This document shows, in pieces, positions 6,982 to 45,016 of a stretch of 64,000 bases of DNA (position 1 is the stretch's first letter; each line of letters starts with the position of its first letter). The position numbers were made by a program, and so were the translations under genes. The stretch covers positions 79,023 through 143,022 of the forward strand of contig JAFCGA010000002.1 of assembly GCA_017608345.1 (NCBI GenBank). Direction: 5' to 3'. Source of the stretch: Candidatus Pacearchaeota archaeon. GTDB taxonomy: Archaea; Nanobdellota; Nanobdellia; UBA10117; JAFCGA01. The notes under the pieces were generated by a model that worked only from the letters and a program-made list of their open reading frames with translations, did no database searches and was not told the DNA's origin.

Positions 6982-7653
6982 AACCTTCTTTGAGTATTAA
7001 TCAGGATACTTGCAAGCAAGTATCCTGATTTTAAAAGGAGGTGATCCATCTGCAGGTTCCCCTACAGATACCTTGTGTTGACTTCGCCCGCCTCGCTGAA
7101 CCAGGATTCGACTTAACCAAGAAGTTGAGCCTCATCCCAACCCAACTCGGTTGGCGTGACAGGCAGTGTGTGCAAGGGCCAGGGACACATTCACCGCACG
7201 ATGCTAACGCACGATTACTAGGGATTTCGTTTTCACGAGGGTGAGTTGCAACCCTCGATTCGAAAAGATTGAATTTAAGGGATTGGCTTCTCCTTTCGGA
7301 GTTGCAGCCCGTTGTTTCAACCATTGCTTGCCGCGTGTAGCCCAGAGGATTCGAGGCATACTGACCTACCGTAGCCTACACCTTCCTCTCCCTTTCGAGA
7401 GCAGTCCCTTCAGTGTGCTTATTCTCAATGAGAATAGTGGCAACTGAAAGCGTAGGTCTCGCTCGTTGTCTGACTTAACAGAACACCTCACGGCACGAGC
7501 TGACGGCGGCCATGCACCATCTCTCAGCGCGTCGAGTGAGCCATTCAGGCTGACCTTCATTCTGCTGTCGCTTCTGGTAAGGTTCCGGGCGTATAATCCA
7601 ATTGAACCGCAGCACCCACCCCTTGTGGTAGCCCCCCGCCAATTCCTTTAAGT

Positions 7654-7698
7654 ATACTGTAGCTACATTTCTCTAATATTTGTAAGAAAATATAGCAA
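7654..7698 (-). other. 16S insertion 1 (45 nt, putative intron) splitting GGCTGAA | ACTTAAAGGAATTGG
   Basis: The conserved block is contiguous in ordinary archaeal 16S but interrupted here. Boundary is +/-2 nt. Confidence 0.7.
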
Positions 7699-7817
7699 TT
7701 CAGCCTTGCGACCGTACTCCCCAGGTGGCCTGCTTAACGACTTCTCTCCGACACTGCATGCTCACGAAGAACATGCAGCACCTAGCAGGCAGCGTTTACG
7801 GCTAGGACTACGAGGGT

Positions 7818-7882
7818 TATTAGGGCTCTGGAAAATAGTTTTCTTTTTCCAGGGTTTTTCTTTTTAAAAAAAGAAAAAGCCT
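7818..7882 (-). other. 16S insertion 2 (65 nt, putative intron) splitting GGATTAGAT | ACCCTCGTAGTCC
   Basis: The interrupted block is the 785-806 'universal primer' region. The insert folds into two hairpins: TTTTTCTTTTT/AAAAAGAAAAA and CTGGAAAA/TTTTCCAG. Confidence 0.75.
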
Positions 7883-7980
7883 ATCTAATCCTCTTTGATC
7901 CCCTAGCTTTCATCCCTGACCGTCAGACCCGTTCTAGTTAGACGCCTTCGCCGCTGGCGGTCCTCTGGGGATTAAAACAA

Positions 7981-8071
7981 TGTAACTGCACTTTTTCGCT
8001 GCTTTGCAGCAAGTAAAGTAGTTTCTTTTGGGCTACCTTACACCTTTTCTTTCCTAAAGAAAAGGGGCAGT
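7981..8071 (-). other. 16S insertion 3 (about 91 nt, putative intron) splitting GAGCGGTAAAA | TTGTTTTAATCCCCAGAGGACC
   Basis: It interrupts the conserved GGTAAAATCCTGTAATCC-type block and carries a module shared with the tRNA-Ala insertion. Confidence 0.7.
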
Positions 8072-8235
8072 TTTTACCGCTCCCCCCAGAATACCTCTAA
8101 CTCCTCCCGGTCTCAAGCTAAGCAGTATTTTCAGCACGCCTGACAGTTGAGCTGCCAGATTTCACTAAAGACTTACTTAGCCGGCTACGGATGCTTTAGA
8201 CCCAATAAACGTGACCACCACTAAGGGCGCCGGGA

Positions 8236-8266
<31 letters not shown>

Positions 8267-8729
8267 CCCTTTATTCCTGAAGCGTTTTGGACTCCAGAAA
8301 AGCAGACGCAAAAAGCGCCTGCACGTAGGATTCCCCCATCACGCTTGCGCGCATTGTGGAGTATTCAGAACTGCTGCACCCCGTAGGGCTGGGAGCCTTA
8401 TCTCAGTCTCCCTCTCAGGGCTAGGACTCTCATCCCCCTTACAGATCTTAGGTTTGGTGAGCCGTTACCTCACCAACAGCCTAATCTGCCGCCAACTCAT
8501 CCTATGGCGCCGAAGCTTTGGATAAAAGCGCATTCCAGCCTCTTTTATCTATCGGGAATTATCTTCAGTTTCCCGAAGTTATGCCCGACCATAGGGTAGA
8601 TTATTGACGTGTTACTGAGCCTTTCGCCATGATTTCTCATAGACTTGCATGTCTCATGGATCCTACTAGCAGTGGTCTCCCGCAGGATAAACGGGAATTG
8701 TGATCGCATTAAAATAGAATTGGCTATTA

Positions 8730-10498: not shown

Positions 10499-10641
10499 TG
10501 CAGGGGACAGGGTTCGAACCTGCGTAGGCACTAAGCCACTGGGTCCTAAACCCAGCCCGTTCAATCGCAACCAACGCTAAGCTATCTTCTTTCCGCCAGC
10601 GCTTTCTTAAAGGGCTGCTTTGACCACTCCGGCACCCCTGC
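10499..10641 (-). tRNA. tRNA-Leu(UAG) with an inferred 57-nt insertion (about 10561-10617) in the D-loop
   Basis: GCAGGGG TG CCG GAGTGGTCAAAG [57 nt] A CGG G CTGGG TT TAG GA CCCAG, followed by a long variable arm, GCAGG TTCGAAC CCTGT CCCCTGC A. Confidence 0.75.
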
Positions 10642-33164: not shown

Positions 33165-33796
33165 TGGCGTTTAAGGGAAGTTTCCAAGCATATGATAGCA
33201 AAACAATGGCAAAAGTAGTTGGGACTCACCTTCCGATTTCCTCAAAAAACTCACGCGAAATAGCTAGAGTGATTGCAGGCATGAATCTAGATGCTGCGAT
33301 TAAATACCTCGAGGATGTAATGGACAAGAAGCGTGCAGTTCCATACAAGCGATATAATCGAGATACTCCGCATCGAAAAGGAAATGGTTTCGGAGCAGGC
33401 AGATTTCCAAATAAGTCAAGCATGTTCATCATTAATTTACTAAAATCCTTAAAGGCAAACGCTTCAGATAAATCGCTTGATTCAGATAATCTGCAAATCG
33501 TTCACGTTGCAGCACAGCGAGGATCAGTTTTATGGCACTATGGGCGATTGAGAGGTCGGAGAAGAAAATGTACTCACTTCGAAGCCATTGCTAAAGCAAT
33601 AGATAAACCAAAAAAAGACGTAAAGACGATGGATAAGAAAGCAATTCCGAAAGAGATAAAGGAAAAGGTTAGTCCGGAAGTTAAAGTGGAAAAACCAGCA
33701 CAGAAAAAAGAAGAAATTAAGGTTGCGGCACCGAAAGTTGAGAATAAACCAGCGCTAAAGAAAAAAGAAAACGCTACAGTGGAGAATAAAAAATGA
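33164..33796 (+). CDS. rpl22: 50S ribosomal protein L22 (uL22) with a K/E-rich C-terminal tail
   Basis: Core matches archaeal L22 (..SSKNSREIARVIAGM..); about 65 extra low-complexity residues. Confidence 0.9.
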   Translation: MAFKGSFQAYDSKTMAKVVGTHLPISSKNSREIARVIAGMNLDAAIKYLEDVMDKKRAVPYKRYNRDTPHRKGNGFGAGRFPNKSSMFIINLLKSLKANASDKSLDSDNLQIVHVAAQRGSVLWHYGRLRGRRRKCTHFEAIAKAIDKPKKDVKTMDKKAIPKEIKEKVSPEVKVEKPAQKKEEIKVAAPKVENKPALKKKENATVENKK

Positions 33797-34623
33797 TTGA
33801 GCGAGAATTTATCAAAAACAAAGTCCGGGATCTTAATATACAGAAGGAAATCGGATTCATCGTCAAGAAGAATGCAAGTATAGGTAGTATTATTGTTGAA
33901 AAAACACCATTGAGCGAGACTATAACTATTGATGCAGTTAGACCCGGAATAATAATCGGTAGACGCGGAGAAGTAATAAAGAGGATAACTTCGGAGATTA
34001 AGCGTAAATATAAGTTAGATAATCCTCAGATTAAAGTTCGAGAAATCGCACAGCCATTCTTAAACGCACGAGCAGTAGCAGAGAGAATTGCATCGACTCT
34101 GGAACGATTCGGGTCAGCTAGATTCAAGTCAACAGGACACAGATCTGTTTCCTCGATCTTGTCTGCAGGTGCGTTGGGTGCAGAAATCATACTTTCAGGT
34201 AAATTGCCAGGTAAGCGAGCAAGATCTTGGCGATTTTATGATGGGTACATGAAGAAATGCGGTGAGATTTCAGATGTTTATGTTGATAAGGCAATAGAAT
34301 ATGCTACCCTCCCTTCAGGAGTTATCGGGATAAAGGTTAGCATAATGCGAGAAGATGTTCCGCTTCCAGATAAAATTACTATTTTCGAGCCGAAAGAAAG
34401 CGTAGAAGAAATACCTAAAATCGCTATCAAGGCTGCTGAAAAAACCGAAACTAAGCTAGCGGCCGCTGAACAAATAAAAAAATCAGAAGCGGCGACAGTA
34501 AATGCGGAACCCGCTAAAAAAGCAGTAGTTGTCAAGAAAACTGTAGCTAAGAAAGAAAGTAGTTCGAAATTAAAAGTAATTATCAGTAAAGCAACTACGG
34601 AAAAGGAAACCAAAAAGAAGTAA
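33793..34623 (+). CDS. rps3: 30S ribosomal protein S3 (uS3) with a K/A-rich C-terminal tail
   Basis: KH domain ..GIIIGRRGEVIKRI..; position. Confidence 0.95.
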   Translation: MIEREFIKNKVRDLNIQKEIGFIVKKNASIGSIIVEKTPLSETITIDAVRPGIIIGRRGEVIKRITSEIKRKYKLDNPQIKVREIAQPFLNARAVAERIASTLERFGSARFKSTGHRSVSSILSAGALGAEIILSGKLPGKRARSWRFYDGYMKKCGEISDVYVDKAIEYATLPSGVIGIKVSIMREDVPLPDKITIFEPKESVEEIPKIAIKAAEKTETKLAAAEQIKKSEAATVNAEPAKKAVVVKKTVAKKESSSKLKVIISKATTEKETKKK

Positions 34624-35158: not shown

Positions 35159-35422
35159 ATGATAACACCACAAACTATAATTCGACACGAGCTAATCGGA
35201 TTGCGGGCTGAAGTCAAGCAAGCAAAAAACAAAGCCGCGATCGGAATTCGAGGCGTGATCACCGATGAAACTCAGAATACGCTTGAGGTCGAAGGTAAGA
35301 AAGTGTTCAAGGCAGGCTCTGAATTCCAAGTAGAGCTGCCAAATAAAGTGAAAGTATTGGTCGCTGGAGATAACCTCAAAATGCGACCTTGGGAACGGAT
35401 TAAAAAACGGAGAAATGGTTGA
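35159..35422 (+). CDS. rnp1: RNase P protein component 1 (Rpp29/Pop4)
   Basis: HELIGLRAEV..IGIRGVITDETQNTLEV; canonical position before S17. Confidence 0.85.
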   Translation: MITPQTIIRHELIGLRAEVKQAKNKAAIGIRGVITDETQNTLEVEGKKVFKAGSEFQVELPNKVKVLVAGDNLKMRPWERIKKRRNG

Positions 35423-35879
35423 AGCAAAGAAAACAAAATCAAAAGTCGAGAAGAAAACAGCTAGCCCTGCTAAGCCAAAGGTACAAAAGAAACCTGCTGA
35501 AGCGAAACCAAACGCAGTAGCTAAGAAAGCTACGGTGCCGAAAGTGGCTAAAAAATCAGCAAAAGTAGTAATTCCAAAAGCTCCTGAGACGGAAGGAGTA
35601 TGCGAAGATAGGCACTGCGCAGTTCACAAGCATATGAGCGTACGCGGTAGAGTGTTCATTGGAACTGTAATTAAAGATAAAATGAATAAATCAATTGTTG
35701 TTGAGTGGCCACGAAGGGTCTTAATTAGAAAATATGAGCGGTATGCGAAAAAGCGCTCTCGAGTTTCAGCTCACAATCCTAAATGTATTACTGCTAAGGT
35801 CGGCGACCGAGTAAAAATCGCTGAATGTAGACCAATTTCAAAGACTAAGAAATTTGTAGTTGTGGAGGTGCTGAAATGA
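35415..35879 (+). CDS. rps17: 30S ribosomal protein S17 (uS17) with a roughly 55-aa K/A/P-rich N-terminal extension
   Basis: Core ..VRGRVFIGTVIKDKMNKSIVVEW... Confidence 0.9.
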   Translation: MVEAKKTKSKVEKKTASPAKPKVQKKPAEAKPNAVAKKATVPKVAKKSAKVVIPKAPETEGVCEDRHCAVHKHMSVRGRVFIGTVIKDKMNKSIVVEWPRRVLIRKYERYAKKRSRVSAHNPKCITAKVGDRVKIAECRPISKTKKFVVVEVLK

Positions 35880-36232
35880 GCCCGTTCAAATATGATCCTG
35901 TTGAAGTAGCAAGATTAGACGCAGAACGCTGGAAAGCGATAGATGATAAGAATATAGAAAATATTATAGCGGTTGCTACTAAGTTTTACACGGCTCGTTA
36001 TGGTATTTCTGAGAAATCTGCATCAGAACTAACTAATATTCGAACTGAAGCAGCAATGTGCAGAAGAAATGAAAATTATGATGGCGCAGCAGAGCATCTG
36101 ATTCGATTTTATACTCAATTACAAGAGATAATGAGAAAATCAGGAGAAGAAAATGCTACAGGCGTACGAGCTACAGAGTTAGTTGGTAGGATGAATCAAG
36201 CTGAGAAACATTACAGAGATCTTGAAAGATGA
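35876..36232 (+). CDS. Hypothetical 118-aa non-basic protein inserted between S17 and L14
   Basis: ATGA overlaps at both ends. Predicted all-helical, with no ribosomal protein signature. Confidence 0.6.
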   Translation: MSPFKYDPVEVARLDAERWKAIDDKNIENIIAVATKFYTARYGISEKSASELTNIRTEAAMCRRNENYDGAAEHLIRFYTQLQEIMRKSGEENATGVRATELVGRMNQAEKHYRDLER

Positions 36233-36633
36233 AAGCAATAAAATCAAAAGTATCCAAAGGGCTCCCAATAGGAGCTTACGTGAATGTTGTAGATAATTCT
36301 GGAGCTAGAATTATGCAAGTAGTTAGCGTAAGAGGATACAAGACAAGAACAAGAAAGCTAGCTGAGGCAGGTGTTGGAGATAGAATTACTGCAGCTGTAA
36401 CTTCAGGGAAGCCAGATATTAAGCACAAAGTTGTGCACGCAGTAATTGTTCGGCAGAGAAAGCCGTACCATCGCCCAGACGGCACGCGAGTAAAGTTCGA
36501 AGATAATGCAGGAATCATACTCAAAGATATCAAATTAGGTATGCCCAAAGGAACAGTAATAAAGGGTCCAATAGCAAAGGAGGTAGCAGTCCGCTGGGCT
36601 AATGTAGCTAAGATTGCTAGTATGGTATTATGA
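36229..36633 (+). CDS. rpl14: 50S ribosomal protein L14 (uL14)
   Basis: ..VVDNSGARIMQVVSV... Confidence 0.95.
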   Translation: MKAIKSKVSKGLPIGAYVNVVDNSGARIMQVVSVRGYKTRTRKLAEAGVGDRITAAVTSGKPDIKHKVVHAVIVRQRKPYHRPDGTRVKFEDNAGIILKDIKLGMPKGTVIKGPIAKEVAVRWANVAKIASMVL

Positions 36634-36944
36634 CAGAGATGAGACTAACTGCTGACGACTTTCCTGGAAAGAAGAGGAGTGAGCCAATTAACACAGATGA
36701 ACTAATGAGTGAAATTGGTCGTAAATGCGAATTATTGTTTAACAATGACGAATTAGAGCAAGTCAAAGCAGGCAACAGCGGAAAGATCGGGATCTATGGT
36801 ATGAATCGGCATACCTTAGAGATTGCAAGAATAGCTATTGTCGATACGGATATAGATTGCCTTGATTTCAAGACCGCTGAACCATGGGAAAGAGTATATT
36901 GCCAAACATTTGGTGACCGAAGATATGGGGGCACAGTAAATTAG
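36630..36944 (+). CDS. Hypothetical 104-aa acidic protein inserted between L14 and L24
   Basis: ATGA overlap with the L14 stop. Its own stop abuts the L24 ATG directly. Confidence 0.6.
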   Translation: MTEMRLTADDFPGKKRSEPINTDELMSEIGRKCELLFNNDELEQVKAGNSGKIGIYGMNRHTLEIARIAIVDTDIDCLDFKTAEPWERVYCQTFGDRRYGGTVN

Positions 36945-39331: not shown

Positions 39332-39854
39332 GCTCGAATTACCTGAAGGATATGAAGCAAAGGTTGAAGCTAGCCAGATATCTATCAAAAAGGAGAATAG
39401 CGAGTTAGTAAGGCGATTTCCAGCTCAGAAAATGGCTATTCGAGTTGAAAACAAAAAGATAATTATCGACTTAAAATTTAAAGATGCTAAGACCCGCGCG
39501 CTTCTTGGCACGTTTAAAGCACATATTAAAAATATGCTTGCGGGATTAAAGGAAGAATTTGTGTACAAGCTAAAGATTTGTTCAGTTCACTTCCCGATGA
39601 ATGTGCAGGTTAAAGGTAATGAACTGTCAATTAATAATTTCATTGGTGGTAAGAAAGCGCGCAATATTAAGATACCTCCTAGTGTAGATATTAGTGTTAA
39701 GGGTAATGATATTTTAGTAAAATCAAGAGACATTGAGCTAGCAGGAATGGCAGCCGCCAGGATTGAACAAATTACAAGGTTATCTAAGAAGGATCGGAGA
39801 GTCTTTCAAGATGGAATATTTATGGTAGAAAAAGCTGGGAAGGTAATTCGATGA
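39321..39854 (+). CDS. rpl6: 50S ribosomal protein L6 (uL6)
   Basis: Position and two-domain L6 pattern. Confidence 0.9.
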   Translation: MSTELELPEGYEAKVEASQISIKKENSELVRRFPAQKMAIRVENKKIIIDLKFKDAKTRALLGTFKAHIKNMLAGLKEEFVYKLKICSVHFPMNVQVKGNELSINNFIGGKKARNIKIPPSVDISVKGNDILVKSRDIELAGMAAARIEQITRLSKKDRRVFQDGIFMVEKAGKVIR

Positions 39855-40609
39855 CTGACTTAAAACAAAAGCTCGCTGAGCGCAAGAAATTGAAGAAAAA
39901 GACACCAACTTTCGCTAGACAGGAAGCTCATGTTAGAAAAAGATTGCCTAGCTCTTGGAGAAAACCACGAGGAGTTCACTCGAAAATGCGCAGAGGGAGA
40001 GCAGGAAAGCACGCAGTAGTTAAAATTGGATATGGTGGCCCCACTGAAGTCAGAGGGCTAACAAAAGAAGGTTTAGTGTCAATAACAGTTAGCACAGCAA
40101 AGGATCTTGCGATGATTACTGGAAAAGCAGCGATTTTATCTAGCACTATTGGGCGCAGGAAGAAATTGCAGATATTAGAAGCTGCAAAGAAGTCAAATAT
40201 ATCTTTTCAGAATGTCAAAGACGTAGCTGCCGAGATAATTAAACTCAAAACCGCTGTTGATAAGCAGAAGCTCGAAAAGAAAAAGCGATTCGAATCTAAG
40301 AAGAAAAAGAGGAAGCTATTCGCGAAGAAAGAAAAGAAAGACGACAAGAAACTTGAGAAAGAAGAGACGAAAGCAGAAGAGAAATCGCCTGAAAGTAAAG
40401 AGCAGAAACCCGCGGAGAAAAAGCAGGAAGCTAAACCTTTAGATGCCGTAAAGAAGACAGAGAGTAAGGAAAAGAGACCTGTAGAAAAGAAGCCGGAACC
40501 AAAAGTTGAGGCACCGAAAGTCGAGAAGAAGCAGCAAAAGCCTGCTGGAAAAGTATTAGAATCAAAACCAAAGAAGGTAGTTCCAAAAGTCGAGGAGAAA
40601 CGCCAGTGA
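39851..40609 (+). CDS. rpl32e: 50S ribosomal protein L32e with a roughly 125-aa K/E-rich C-terminal tail
   Basis: ..FARQEAHVRKRLPSSWRKPRG.HSKMR.. core. Confidence 0.9.
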   Translation: MTDLKQKLAERKKLKKKTPTFARQEAHVRKRLPSSWRKPRGVHSKMRRGRAGKHAVVKIGYGGPTEVRGLTKEGLVSITVSTAKDLAMITGKAAILSSTIGRRKKLQILEAAKKSNISFQNVKDVAAEIIKLKTAVDKQKLEKKKRFESKKKKRKLFAKKEKKDDKKLEKEETKAEEKSPESKEQKPAEKKQEAKPLDAVKKTESKEKRPVEKKPEPKVEAPKVEKKQQKPAGKVLESKPKKVVPKVEEKRQ

Positions 40610-42366: not shown

Positions 42367-42834
42367 ATGAAATTAGCAGTAGTTAGAGTAAGAGGCATAG
42401 TTGGAGTAAATCAGCGGATAGAGGATACTATGAAACTTCTTCGGCTGTATAAAAAGAATCACTGTGTTGTTGTCGAAGATTCCAAAGCTGTTCGAGGCAT
42501 GCTAAATAAGATTAAAGATTATAGCACTTTTGGAGAGGTCGACGAAAAGACCGTTAACGAGCTCCTAGAAAAGCGCGGGCGAGTAGTTGGTAATAAACCA
42601 CTCACTGAAGCTTGGACTAGAAAGCAAGCTAAGATGGATATCAAACAGTTAGCTGCTAAGTTCTTCAAAGGAGATATTAAGTTAAAGGACGTTCCAGGAT
42701 TAAAGCCTTGGTTTAAACTAGCTCCTCCGCGAGGCGGTTTCGAGCGAGAGGGTATAAAGAAGGCTTTCTCAGTCGGCGGGGTTTTGGGTTATCGGAAAGA
42801 TAAGATTAGTGCTTTGATTCGGAGGATGATTTAG
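42367..42834 (+). CDS. rpl30: 50S ribosomal protein L30 (uL30)
   Basis: MKLAVVRVRG....TMKLLRL.. Confidence 0.9.
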   Translation: MKLAVVRVRGIVGVNQRIEDTMKLLRLYKKNHCVVVEDSKAVRGMLNKIKDYSTFGEVDEKTVNELLEKRGRVVGNKPLTEAWTRKQAKMDIKQLAAKFFKGDIKLKDVPGLKPWFKLAPPRGGFEREGIKKAFSVGGVLGYRKDKISALIRRMI

Positions 42835-42835
42835 A

Positions 42836-43231
42836 ATGGCAGATATAATTGCAGAGGTAATAGTCTCAAATATAGATACGGATTATCTTAGGATGTGTAT
42901 ATTAAGTGGAGAATCTAGCTCCGCAACGCTAGCTGATAAGAAGCAGACAGAGTTAGAAGGAATACGAAGATTTGTCCCCGCACTAGAGTCTCTCAGAGAT
43001 AAATTGGATCTAGATTTTGATATCTTTGCGCATAAGCGGAGCTGGGATGGCCAGATTTTTTTGTATTTAGGAGAACGTACATATTCAGATAGACCTTATA
43101 TGAATAGCCGATGGCATACAGCGATCACCACAGCTAGTCCGCTTTCTGAGCAAATATCTCTAGATGTTCAATCTACAATTGCTCAACAATTTGTTGACGC
43201 AGTAGAGAACTATAAAGCAGAGAATAATTAA
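42836..43231 (+). CDS. Hypothetical 131-aa acidic protein inserted between L30 and L15
   Basis: 1-nt spacers on both sides. No ribosomal protein signature. Confidence 0.6.
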   Translation: MADIIAEVIVSNIDTDYLRMCILSGESSSATLADKKQTELEGIRRFVPALESLRDKLDLDFDIFAHKRSWDGQIFLYLGERTYSDRPYMNSRWHTAITTASPLSEQISLDVQSTIAQQFVDAVENYKAENN

Positions 43232-43232
43232 C

Positions 43233-43622
43233 ATGTCAATAACTCACAAAACCACAAAAACTCGGAAAAAGCGAGCTAGTCGTACTTATGGCTGGGGCGG
43301 AGGTAAAAAACACCGCGGAGCTGGCTCTAGAGGTGGAAGAGGTAAGGCTGGTTCTGGAAAGCGAGGTCAGCAGAGAGAAACCAAGTATCTTGCTAAACAT
43401 ATAAAAATGGTTGGGAAGCACGGTTTTAAATCACATATAAAGCGATTGAAGATAATTAATGTCTCAGAGATTTCTAAATTAGCAAAAAACAACGAAGTCG
43501 ATATAACTAATTACAAACTCCTTGGCAGCGGAAATATCAGCGAAAAGCTTAAAGTTAAAGTTAAACAATACACTAAGAAAGCTGAAGAAAAAATCAAAGC
43601 TGCTGGTGGAGAGATTGTGTAA
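43233..43622 (+). CDS. rpl15: 50S ribosomal protein L15 (uL15)
   Basis: ..GGGKKHRGAGSRGGRGKAG.. Confidence 0.95.
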   Translation: MSITHKTTKTRKKRASRTYGWGGGKKHRGAGSRGGRGKAGSGKRGQQRETKYLAKHIKMVGKHGFKSHIKRLKIINVSEISKLAKNNEVDITNYKLLGSGNISEKLKVKVKQYTKKAEEKIKAAGGEIV

Positions 43623-45016
43623 TGGTCGACTGGAAAAAGATAGTAGAGTCTTTTCCTGAAGTAGATAGGCCTAAAACAAAGAAACTTGGCTTTAACGCAA
43701 AACTCAAGTGGACAGGTATTGTCCTTTTATTATATTTTCTCTTACTTCATATTCCCTTGCATGGTTTGGGGGCTAATGCTCTTGAGCAATTCGAGTATCT
43801 TTCTATTATTCTTGGAGCGAGTTTTGGTTCAATAATCTCTTTAGGTATTGGACCTATCGTAACAGCGTCTATTGTTCTGCAATTATTAATGGGCTCGGGC
43901 ATGCTTAATCTCGATATGAACACGCACGAAGGCAAAATCAAGTTCCAAGCTCTGCAAAAAATCGCAACCATCGCGTTCATAATTTTCGAAGCAATAGTTT
44001 ACGTTTTCATGGGTGGTCTCGCACCAGCACCGGAACTGGCAGGAACATCTGTTTTCTTGTATATTCAGATTGGATTAGTGATTCAGCTAGCTATTGGCGG
44101 TTATATGCTCGTGCTTATGGATGAAATTATAACTAAATGGGGCTTTGGTTCAGGAGTTTCACTATTTATTGCGGGTGGAGTTTCAAGACAAATATTTATT
44201 TCTGCGCTGAATTGGCTACCTTCGCCGACAAATCCAAATGTACCGGTCGGTAGAATTCCTTTTTTAATTCAAGCTTTAGGGCAAGGAGATCCGTTAGGTG
44301 CATTGATTGCGATTATAGCCATAGTTGCTACTATCGTCGTTTTCTTGCTCTGCGTATATGGGCAGGCTATGAAAGTAGAGATACCGCTCTCCTTTGGTAG
44401 AGTGAGAGGGTATGGTATGCGATGGCCGCTTAAATTCATGTACACTTCTAATATTCCCGTTATACTTATTGCTGCACTGATGGCGAATATCCAGCTATGG
44501 GCTAGACTGTTGCAGAACTGGGGGCACCCGATATTAGGCACTTTTTCAGGTAATGCTCCTGCTACCGGGCTTGTAAAATGGATAGCATCTCCAGATATTG
44601 TAAGATCTTTAGTTGTAGGTGCTGCTACCGGAGAAATGGTCATCCAAGCTGTTGTTTATACTGCGCTGATGGTCGGTGGAGCAATCTTATTCTCGGTTCT
44701 GTGGGTAAAAACCGCTAACATGGACGCTAAGGCTCAAGCTAAGCAGATTCTAGCTTCGGGATTGCAAGTTCCGGGATTTAGAAGAGATCCTAGAATTTTA
44801 GAGTCGGTACTTAATCGATATATTCCTGGTTTAACGATTATGGGTGGAGCACTAGTTGGTTTGCTAGCAGCAGTGGCAGATCTATCTGGCGCATTAAGCC
44901 GAGGTACAGGTATTTTACTTACAGTTATGATTGTGTATAAGCTATTCGAGGATATTTCTAGACAGCATGCGTATGATATGCATCCTGCATTACGTAAGTT
45001 CATGAGTCCCGAATAG
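43622..45016 (+). CDS. secY: Preprotein translocase subunit SecY
   Basis: 10-TM SecY pattern and its position after L15. Confidence 0.95.
   Translation: MVDWKKIVESFPEVDRPKTKKLGFNAKLKWTGIVLLLYFLLLHIPLHGLGANALEQFEYLSIILGASFGSIISLGIGPIVTASIVLQLLMGSGMLNLDMNTHEGKIKFQALQKIATIAFIIFEAIVYVFMGGLAPAPELAGTSVFLYIQIGLVIQLAIGGYMLVLMDEIITKWGFGSGVSLFIAGGVSRQIFISALNWLPSPTNPNVPVGRIPFLIQALGQGDPLGALIAIIAIVATIVVFLLCVYGQAMKVEIPLSFGRVRGYGMRWPLKFMYTSNIPVILIAALMANIQLWARLLQNWGHPILGTFSGNAPATGLVKWIASPDIVRSLVVGAATGEMVIQAVVYTALMVGGAILFSVLWVKTANMDAKAQAKQILASGLQVPGFRRDPRILESVLNRYIPGLTIMGGALVGLLAAVADLSGALSRGTGILLTVMIVYKLFEDISRQHAYDMHPALRKFMSPE

Follow-up and report, generated by a model that had tools for sequence, protein, structure and literature searches.

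A probable translationally coupled cargo gene in a variable slot between the L30 and L15 genes of a Pacearchaeota ribosomal protein operon

The archaeal S10-spc ribosomal protein super-operon of a Candidatus Pacearchaeota archaeon holds, between its L30 and L15 genes, a 131-aa open reading frame that encodes an acidic, soluble orphan (ORF3, 42836..43231, + strand). Coordinates refer to the window, the whole 64 000-nt stretch analyzed here (assembly GCA_017608345.1, contig JAFCGA010000002.1, positions 79 023 to 143 022 of the forward strand). On balance we favor the explanation that ORF3 is a genuine protein-coding gene confined to this lineage, found so far in one genome, and is probably variable-slot cargo, translationally coupled and unrelated to ribosome function. 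The L30–L15 junction is a variable slot, with non-homologous tenants, precise empty alleles in relatives and non-random reuse. Because 8 of 62 non-redundant related operons hold an insert at this junction (the slot is empty in the other 54), ORF3 is better regarded as one tenant of a recurrent variable slot than as a one-off. The first-pass annotation had described the S5-L30-L15-SecY run as otherwise invariant. The canonical archaeal and DPANN gene order does keep that run (PMC10833476); within this organism's own lineage the description fails, given the inserts in those eight Woesearchaeota-type operons. The same annotation had presented ORF3 as a non-ribosomal ORF, and it is indeed acidic, soluble and devoid of ribosomal protein features, but its presence at this position is one instance of a recurrent occupancy.

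The super-operon is complete in the window, on the + strand, in the order L3-L4-L23-L2-S19-L22-S3-L29-SUI1-Rpp29-S17-(ORF1)-L14-(ORF2)-L24-S4e-L5-S14-S8-L6-L32e-L19e-L18-S5-L30-(ORF3)-L15-SecY. The upstream flank of the slot is L30 (42367..42834, +; Pfam Ribosomal_L30, 1.5e-16), whose C-terminus reads ...RRMI before a TAG stop at 42832-42834. A GGAGG Shine-Dalgarno (SD) core (42821..42825, +) lies within the two L30 arginine codons, 10 nt 5' of the ORF3 ATG at 42836. ORF3 terminates with TAA at 43229-43231, and its junction with the downstream flank L15 (43233..43622, +; Pfam Ribosomal_L27A, 7e-12, with tblastn matches to the L15 of relatives) reads TAA-c-ATG (43229..43235, +), preceded by gcagagaataattaac, in which we see no good SD. 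SecY (43622-45016) follows directly. A single nucleotide therefore separates ORF3 from each neighbor, as first annotated: TAG ends at 42834 and ATG begins at 42836, and TAA ends at 43231 and L15 begins at 43233. The L15 of the window is 129 aa long, compared to about 142-152 aa in relatives; the shortfall is internal, leaving the N-terminus intact.

The physical character first ascribed to the ORF3 product was confirmed by calculation. It is acidic (131 aa, pI 4.64, net charge about -8), has no transmembrane (TM) segment (the top Kyte-Doolittle 19-residue window is 1.03), and has no basic patch, its net charge never exceeding +2 in any 15-residue window; the neighboring L30 and L15 products have pI above 10. 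With the 6.4% off-frame stop frequency of the operon, 131 codons would remain open by chance with P ~1.7e-4. In a coding-versus-off-frame codon model the ORF3 frame alone is positive, the other five frames scoring -0.40 to -0.83 per codon. The GC fractions at codon positions 1/2/3 are 0.48/0.38/0.30, giving the order GC1>GC2>GC3 also seen in the flanking genes, and no composition break was found around ORF3. Its codon score stands at z=3.4 over stop-free random sequence and was equalled by 1 of 5000 random sequences; with the model trained on 59 long ORFs of the window, it falls at the 14th percentile among the window's own genes, and it overlaps the scores of long wrong-frame open stretches of real genes (mean -0.04, sd 0.15). 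From these signals we consider translation of ORF3 very probable, its codon usage being native though weakly adapted, and we have high confidence, on sequence grounds, that it is a real translated gene.

Homology searches assign the ORF3 protein to no known family. There was no relevant match at E<=1 in Pfam or NCBIfam and no ribosomal protein domain, no match in PHROGs or PADLOC, none at E<=10 among PDB sequences, and no relative in a scan of viral contigs; a lookup of the exact sequence in assemblies returned no record. A k-mer-seeded search of 5.8 billion protein clusters returned ORF3 alone. With exhaustive phmmer against 1.84 billion representatives the only match besides ORF3 was P0002 (E=2.6e-5), a 1346-aa eukaryote-type NB-ARC/TPR-like repeat protein that we judged a spurious, repeat-inflated match (four repeat copies over ~50 residues). 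Among 109 related loci tblastn found no ORF3 homolog, including in genomes whose SecY is 70-75% identical. An origin by duplication or frameshift of a neighboring gene was also considered, but neither tblastx nor blastn matched the ORF3 DNA to anything in the window or the 109 loci; nor does ORF3 show the similarity to ORF1 or ORF2 that a paralog would. The single-sequence AlphaFold2 model is of low confidence (pLDDT 56.5, pTM 0.55) and depicts a compact alpha/beta protein with the element order beta-alpha-alpha-alpha-beta-beta-loop-alpha. The best Foldseek matches of this model had E values of 0.45 in PDB and 0.16 in BFVD and a TM of about 0.3, too poor to mean anything.

Relatives were gathered by SecY-based scans, which yielded 29 loci from GTDB species representatives and 80 from metagenomes, almost all labelled Woesearchaeota, Nanoarchaeota or Pacearchaeota; the nearest relative with a usable L30–L15 junction on its contig has ~75% SecY identity. 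The occupants of the junction are varied. Four are orphans, of 105 aa (locus L003), 108 aa (L030), 110 aa (L049, 9238-9570) and 117 aa (L009, 643-996). The others are an 88-aa SemiSWEET/PQ-loop protein (L004; Pfam 8.5e-15), a 142-aa NUDIX protein (L070; 4e-7), a 105-aa TM protein (L076, with a relative in L084) and a 97-aa rubredoxin-like Zn-ribbon protein (L081), this last a weak match under the Pfam cut-off. In a comparison of eight occupants no mutual similarity was found apart from the L076/L084 pair, and no sequence among them resembles ORF3. Because no other occupant is homologous to ORF3, its orphan status stands. We also tried ORF3 as a fast-diverging ortholog of the 105-117-aa occupants (L003, L030, L049 and L009), obtaining unstable alignments and only a vague motif; we rejected this reading because the sister loci L009 and L049 already hold inserts that cannot be aligned with each other. 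The ...NGN ending before the stop that these two occupants share arises only from overlap with the L15 start.

Some occupants are conserved as proteins. The L030 occupant (protein P0003) recurs in three samples, always at the L30–L15 junction, and its DNA is identical in the three contigs with DNA; P0004 is an 84%-identical, indel-free variant in the same slot. The TM occupants of L076 and L084 are 43% identical, and their adjoining L15 47%. All 16 of the occupants scored in relatives have codon scores below their own genome's median (mean percentile 0.15), which fits young or acquired genes; the low scores may also be explained by training sets dominated by basic ribosomal proteins.

Comparison of close relatives captures turnover at the slot. 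Locus L030 and loci L032 and L033, from the same metagenome series and with 85-89% nucleotide identity, differ at the L30–L15 junction by exactly 324 nt (108 codons), placed at the stop/start overlap. The empty site of L032/L033 reads gatgatCTAATGG (...gatgatCTAATGGTAAC), with the TAA of L30 overlapping the ATG of L15. The filled site of L030 runs gatgatATGAGCG...CAAGTAATGG, the ORF being followed at the handover end by ...CAAGTAATGGTAAC: the insert brings an ATGA that combines the L30 stop with the start of the new ORF, and re-uses the ancestral TAATG overlap for handover to L15. In the sisters L009 and L049, DNA identity is 92.4% in L30, 89.9% in L15 and 93.1% in SecY, and collapses from the insert start codon to the L15 ATG; their 117-aa and 110-aa occupants are unrelated, and the difference looks like allelic cassette replacement. 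On a neighbor-joining tree of L30 and SecY the occupied genomes are scattered among empty ones, which points to many independent gains, losses or replacements. The contents of the slot are thus gained, lost and swapped as whole ORFs in the relatives, and we infer the same for ORF3.

Use of operon junctions for inserts is far from even. We built a gap matrix over all 24 operon junctions, removed duplicate loci and counted as an insert any gap of at least 150 nt. The 27 inserts in 762 junction observations are confined to 7 of 23 junction types (Monte Carlo P<5e-5): Rpp29–S17 (3/22), S17–L14 (3/31), L14–L24 (6/32), L24–S4e (1/34), L19e–L18 (3/45), L30–L15 (8/62, the most used) and L15–SecY (3/69). 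Sixteen junction types have no insert, for example S5–L30 (0/56) and L18–S5 (0/47). ORF1, ORF2 and ORF3 of the window sit in three of the hot junctions (S17–L14, L14–L24 and L30–L15), and L003 fills these same three and L19e–L18 besides. ORF1 (35876..36232, +; 118 aa) occupies the S17–L14 slot with ATGA overlaps on both sides; it has no family match, was a singleton in the 5.8-billion-cluster search, and is weakly similar (E=0.005) to the 102-aa occupant of S17–L14 in L004. ORF2 (36630..36944, +; 104 aa), in the L14–L24 slot, shares nucleotides with the L14 stop and runs right up to the L24 start, and has no family match in Pfam, NCBIfam, PHROGs or PADLOC. The Rpp29–S17 gaps, found in L004, L013 and L044, are larger (646-969 nt) and contain opposite-strand genes; they represent an operon break, of another kind than the coupled single-ORF slots. 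The L15–SecY gaps of 508-531 nt occur in more distant archaea (L026, L090 and L101; SecY 41% identical) and contain a conserved acidic ORF of 107-114 aa with a weak acyl-carrier (PP-binding) match (E=0.002).

The sequence around ORF3 fits the layout of a coupled operon gene, with one nucleotide on each side and an SD inside the upstream gene. The last L30 codons, cgg-agg-atg-att-tag, contain the GGAGG, to which the 3' end of the window's own 16S rRNA (...GGATCACCTCCT) is complementary. In nearly all relatives the (E/R)RMI ending of L30 with its stop is encoded by GAGGATGAT, whether L15 or an insert comes next; this retention of the SD regardless of the following gene suggests that inserts take over the ribosome binding site normally serving L15. 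ORF3 translation would accordingly begin 1 nt past the L30 stop by means of the GGAGG in the last L30 codons, a motif that would serve L15 itself in insert-free relatives. At the other end, 8 of 9 occupied slots (the window counted) have an insert whose stop codon overlaps the L15 start or comes right up to it, with stop-to-start offsets of -13 to +2 (the window's +2 meaning that L15 starts 2 nt past the end of the ORF3 stop, i.e. after one spacer nucleotide) and a single exception, L076, which has a 55-nt spacer. The 22 nt before the window's L15 ATG (aagcagagaataattaac) contain no good SD. Matches to internal promoters or terminators at ORF3 were not in excess; a TATAAA at 43211 was considered as an L15 promoter and rejected, its distance being wrong for a leaderless L15 transcript. 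ORF3 would have no signals of its own and be transcribed within the ribosomal protein mRNA.

In archaea, genes must overlap or be separated by very short spacers for termination-reinitiation to couple them, and operon RNA left untranslated is subject to polarity, likely via FttA (both reviewed in PMC12548453). Since L15 lacks a good SD of its own and starts 1 nt past the ORF3 stop, it most likely relies for translation on ribosomes that terminate at the end of ORF3 and then reinitiate. Reading through ORF3 would then be needed for efficient synthesis of L15, and probably of SecY, and translation of an insert from end to end would guard both genes against lost coupling and polarity. If ribosomes must read ORF3 to its end, a stop codon arising inside the insert would be costly; we propose that the exact ORF size of every insert in these slots reflects the protection that full translation gives to L15 and SecY expression. 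Such a coupling lock could stabilize an ORF irrespective of the role of its protein.

How the inserts arrive may also be read in part from their boundaries. Around ORF3, searches for direct or inverted repeats, target-site duplications, scars and microhomologies gave chance-level short matches only, and PHROGs and PADLOC revealed no mobile-element or defense gene there. The most likely route would be recombination within the conserved flanking ribosomal protein genes or at stop/start-SD motifs. That the boundaries coincide seamlessly with stop/start motifs suggests a recombinational exchange of whole ORFs, which could hypothetically be homologous, through the flanking genes, or microhomology-mediated at SD/ATGA motifs. 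In L041 the L14–L24 gap (875-1187) contains an ORF of 56 aa that ends in a copy of the L14 C-terminus (...AKEVAIRWTAVAKLATMIL); this duplicated L14 3' fragment may be the recombination scar of an insertion or deletion, and likewise suggests whole-ORF exchange.

Under the explanation we favor, the S10-spc super-operon of Woesearchaeota-type DPANN archaea would have a small number of positions that tolerate an extra gene, ORF3 filling one of them; its product, acidic, soluble and of alpha/beta fold, would serve as accessory cargo and be synthesized at about the level of ribosomal proteins. The strengths we attach to this and to the other readings are not mutually exclusive. ORF3 could instead be a new lineage-specific ribosomal protein, a ribosome-associated factor or a dedicated acidic chaperone co-made with the basic L30 and L15. 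Its place inside the operon, with 1-nt spacers and a ribosomal protein SD and coupling in common, would suit that role, as would a pI of 4.6 set against neighbors above 10 and the presence of SUI1 and Rpp29, translation-related proteins outside the ribosomal protein set, in the same cluster; archaeal spc operon ORFs that were once mysterious, moreover, later proved to be S4e, L32e and L19e. We nevertheless consider this reading improbable, and ORF3 is probably not a ribosomal component, since no homolog turns up in relatives with SecY as close as 70-75%, 54 of 62 operons leave the slot empty and others fill it with a SemiSWEET (sugar-transporter half), a NUDIX hydrolase or TM proteins, near-identical genomes hold unrelated occupants, and the protein has neither a basic or RNA-binding surface nor a ribosomal protein domain. 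As regards a chaperone in particular, by analogy with the eukaryotic Acl4, Yar1 and Sqt1 one would look for a repeat scaffold, and Pfam finds no TPR, ankyrin or WD40 domain in ORF3, its sole distant match (P0002) is spurious, and it is not co-conserved with L30 or L15. The evidence is less strong against a pure spacer ORF, one without protein-level function that stays stop-free only for the sake of reinitiation or polarity and that might be a proto-gene. A singleton among ~15 billion proteins with a low-confidence model (pLDDT 56.5) could well be such an ORF, the more so as ORF3 and all 16 scored occupants lie at the low end of codon scores (mean percentile 0.15), L15 has no SD of its own and archaeal coupling and polarity impose their constraints; yet codon usage far above that of stop-free random sequence (z=3.4), the GC1>GC2>GC3 order and a compact alpha/beta model with pTM 0.55 from a single sequence speak for a protein, other occupants are conserved as proteins (P0003/P0004 at 84% without indels, L076/L084 at 43%) or belong to bona fide families, and the low scores may only mirror training sets rich in basic ribosomal proteins. 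We rate the spacer reading as unlikely, somewhat less so than a ribosomal or chaperone role.

Two further readings carry less weight still. The patchy, cassette-like distribution and the replacement of occupants between close relatives are what one might expect if ORF3 had been carried into the operon, or left behind there, by a mobile or selfish element with this target (a toxin-antitoxin, a defense or anti-defense gene, a viral moron or a homing element), and genes of conflict systems are typically small acidic orphans. PADLOC, PHROGs and viral contigs all lack a match, however, repeats are at chance level only, composition is native, and no partner gene, endonuclease, integrase or promoter or terminator of its own accompanies ORF3, which makes such an origin very improbable. 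That ORF3 occurs on a single contig only might suggest an assembly or annotation artefact, whether through a chimeric join or because an expanded spacer happened to stay open; we give this almost no credence, given the seamless in-register junctions, the intact L30 and L15, the unbroken composition, the independent assembly of the same architecture in many relatives and samples, and the low probability of an open frame by chance (~1.7e-4).

The slot that ORF3 occupies follows the theme of flexible islets and morons, differing in that it holds a single ORF, lies in the ribosomal protein super-operon and is coupled on both sides. Flexible genomic islets are variable slots between core genes, for example in marine picocyanobacteria and in the hypervariable regions of SAR11. 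Like them, the L30–L15 slot has a fixed position among core genes, non-homologous and mostly orphan tenants, both empty and filled alleles, and a patchy distribution on the tree without mobile-element signatures; unlike them, it holds a single ORF inside the cell's most conserved and most highly expressed operon, and this ORF, joined to its neighbors by stop/start overlaps, comes without promoter, terminator or spacer. Phage morons are extra genes between conserved genes of phage late operons, usually with their own promoter and terminator. The slot resembles these in placing single unrelated accessory genes at exact operon gene boundaries, present or absent in close relatives, whereas ORF3 lacks promoter and terminator, lies in a cellular ribosomal protein operon and has no viral relative that we could find. 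Within the S10-spc cluster, ORF3 is like SUI1/aIF1, Rpp29 and SecY in being a co-oriented gene for something other than a ribosomal protein. Those residents, like Hsp20, belong to Pfam families with stable positions across phyla or clades, whereas ORF3 lacks a family, and lacks an ortholog even among the closest relatives. The Hsp20 gene that some Thor- and Odinarchaeota have added to the cluster (PMC10833476) is the closest report to variable slots; in the literature searched we found no description of variable slots in DPANN ribosomal protein operons. As in translationally coupled gene pairs, ORF3 is spaced by 1 nt on both sides with an SD in the 3' end of the upstream gene; such pairs often encode subunits of one complex, whereas ORF3 is an unrelated orphan between two ribosomal protein genes.

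The S10-spc cluster is usually held to be the most rigid gene array of prokaryotes, and one DPANN lineage repeatedly reuses a few of its junctions for unrelated single genes, with occupant swaps seen between genomes ~92% identical. As a tentative generalization, which we regard as possible but doubtful, the Woesearchaeota super-operon may contain a few hypervariable single-ORF slots whose strain-specific orphans are made at ribosomal protein levels and are locked by coupling to L15 and SecY. If translated, the occupants would rank with the strain-specific proteins that these reduced-genome episymbionts express most highly and most constitutively, and at such levels they would be candidates for host interaction or newly born genes. 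Were the hypervariable-slot reading true, the slots might give episymbionts a site for host-interaction or conflict proteins with fast turnover, or act as a nursery for de novo genes. A coupling lock, if real, would mean that an insert before an essential gene without an SD gains a stop codon only at a cost, and would explain how orphan ORFs are stabilized before having a function. Inserts of this kind also matter for annotation and for synteny-based marker extraction in DPANN MAGs.

Elsewhere in the operon and window we note several other departures in length. Long low-complexity extensions rich in Lys, Glu, Ala and Pro occur in L32e (39851-40609), S17 (35415-35879), L22 (33164-33796) and S3 (33793-34623); L32e reaches 252 aa, including a C-terminal tail of ~130 aa. 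The 16S rRNA match (7036-8698, - strand) spans 1663 nt, compared to the 1478-nt Rfam model, which suggests insertions of ~185 nt in total. A tRNA match (10499-10641, - strand) is 143 nt long and probably contains an intron.
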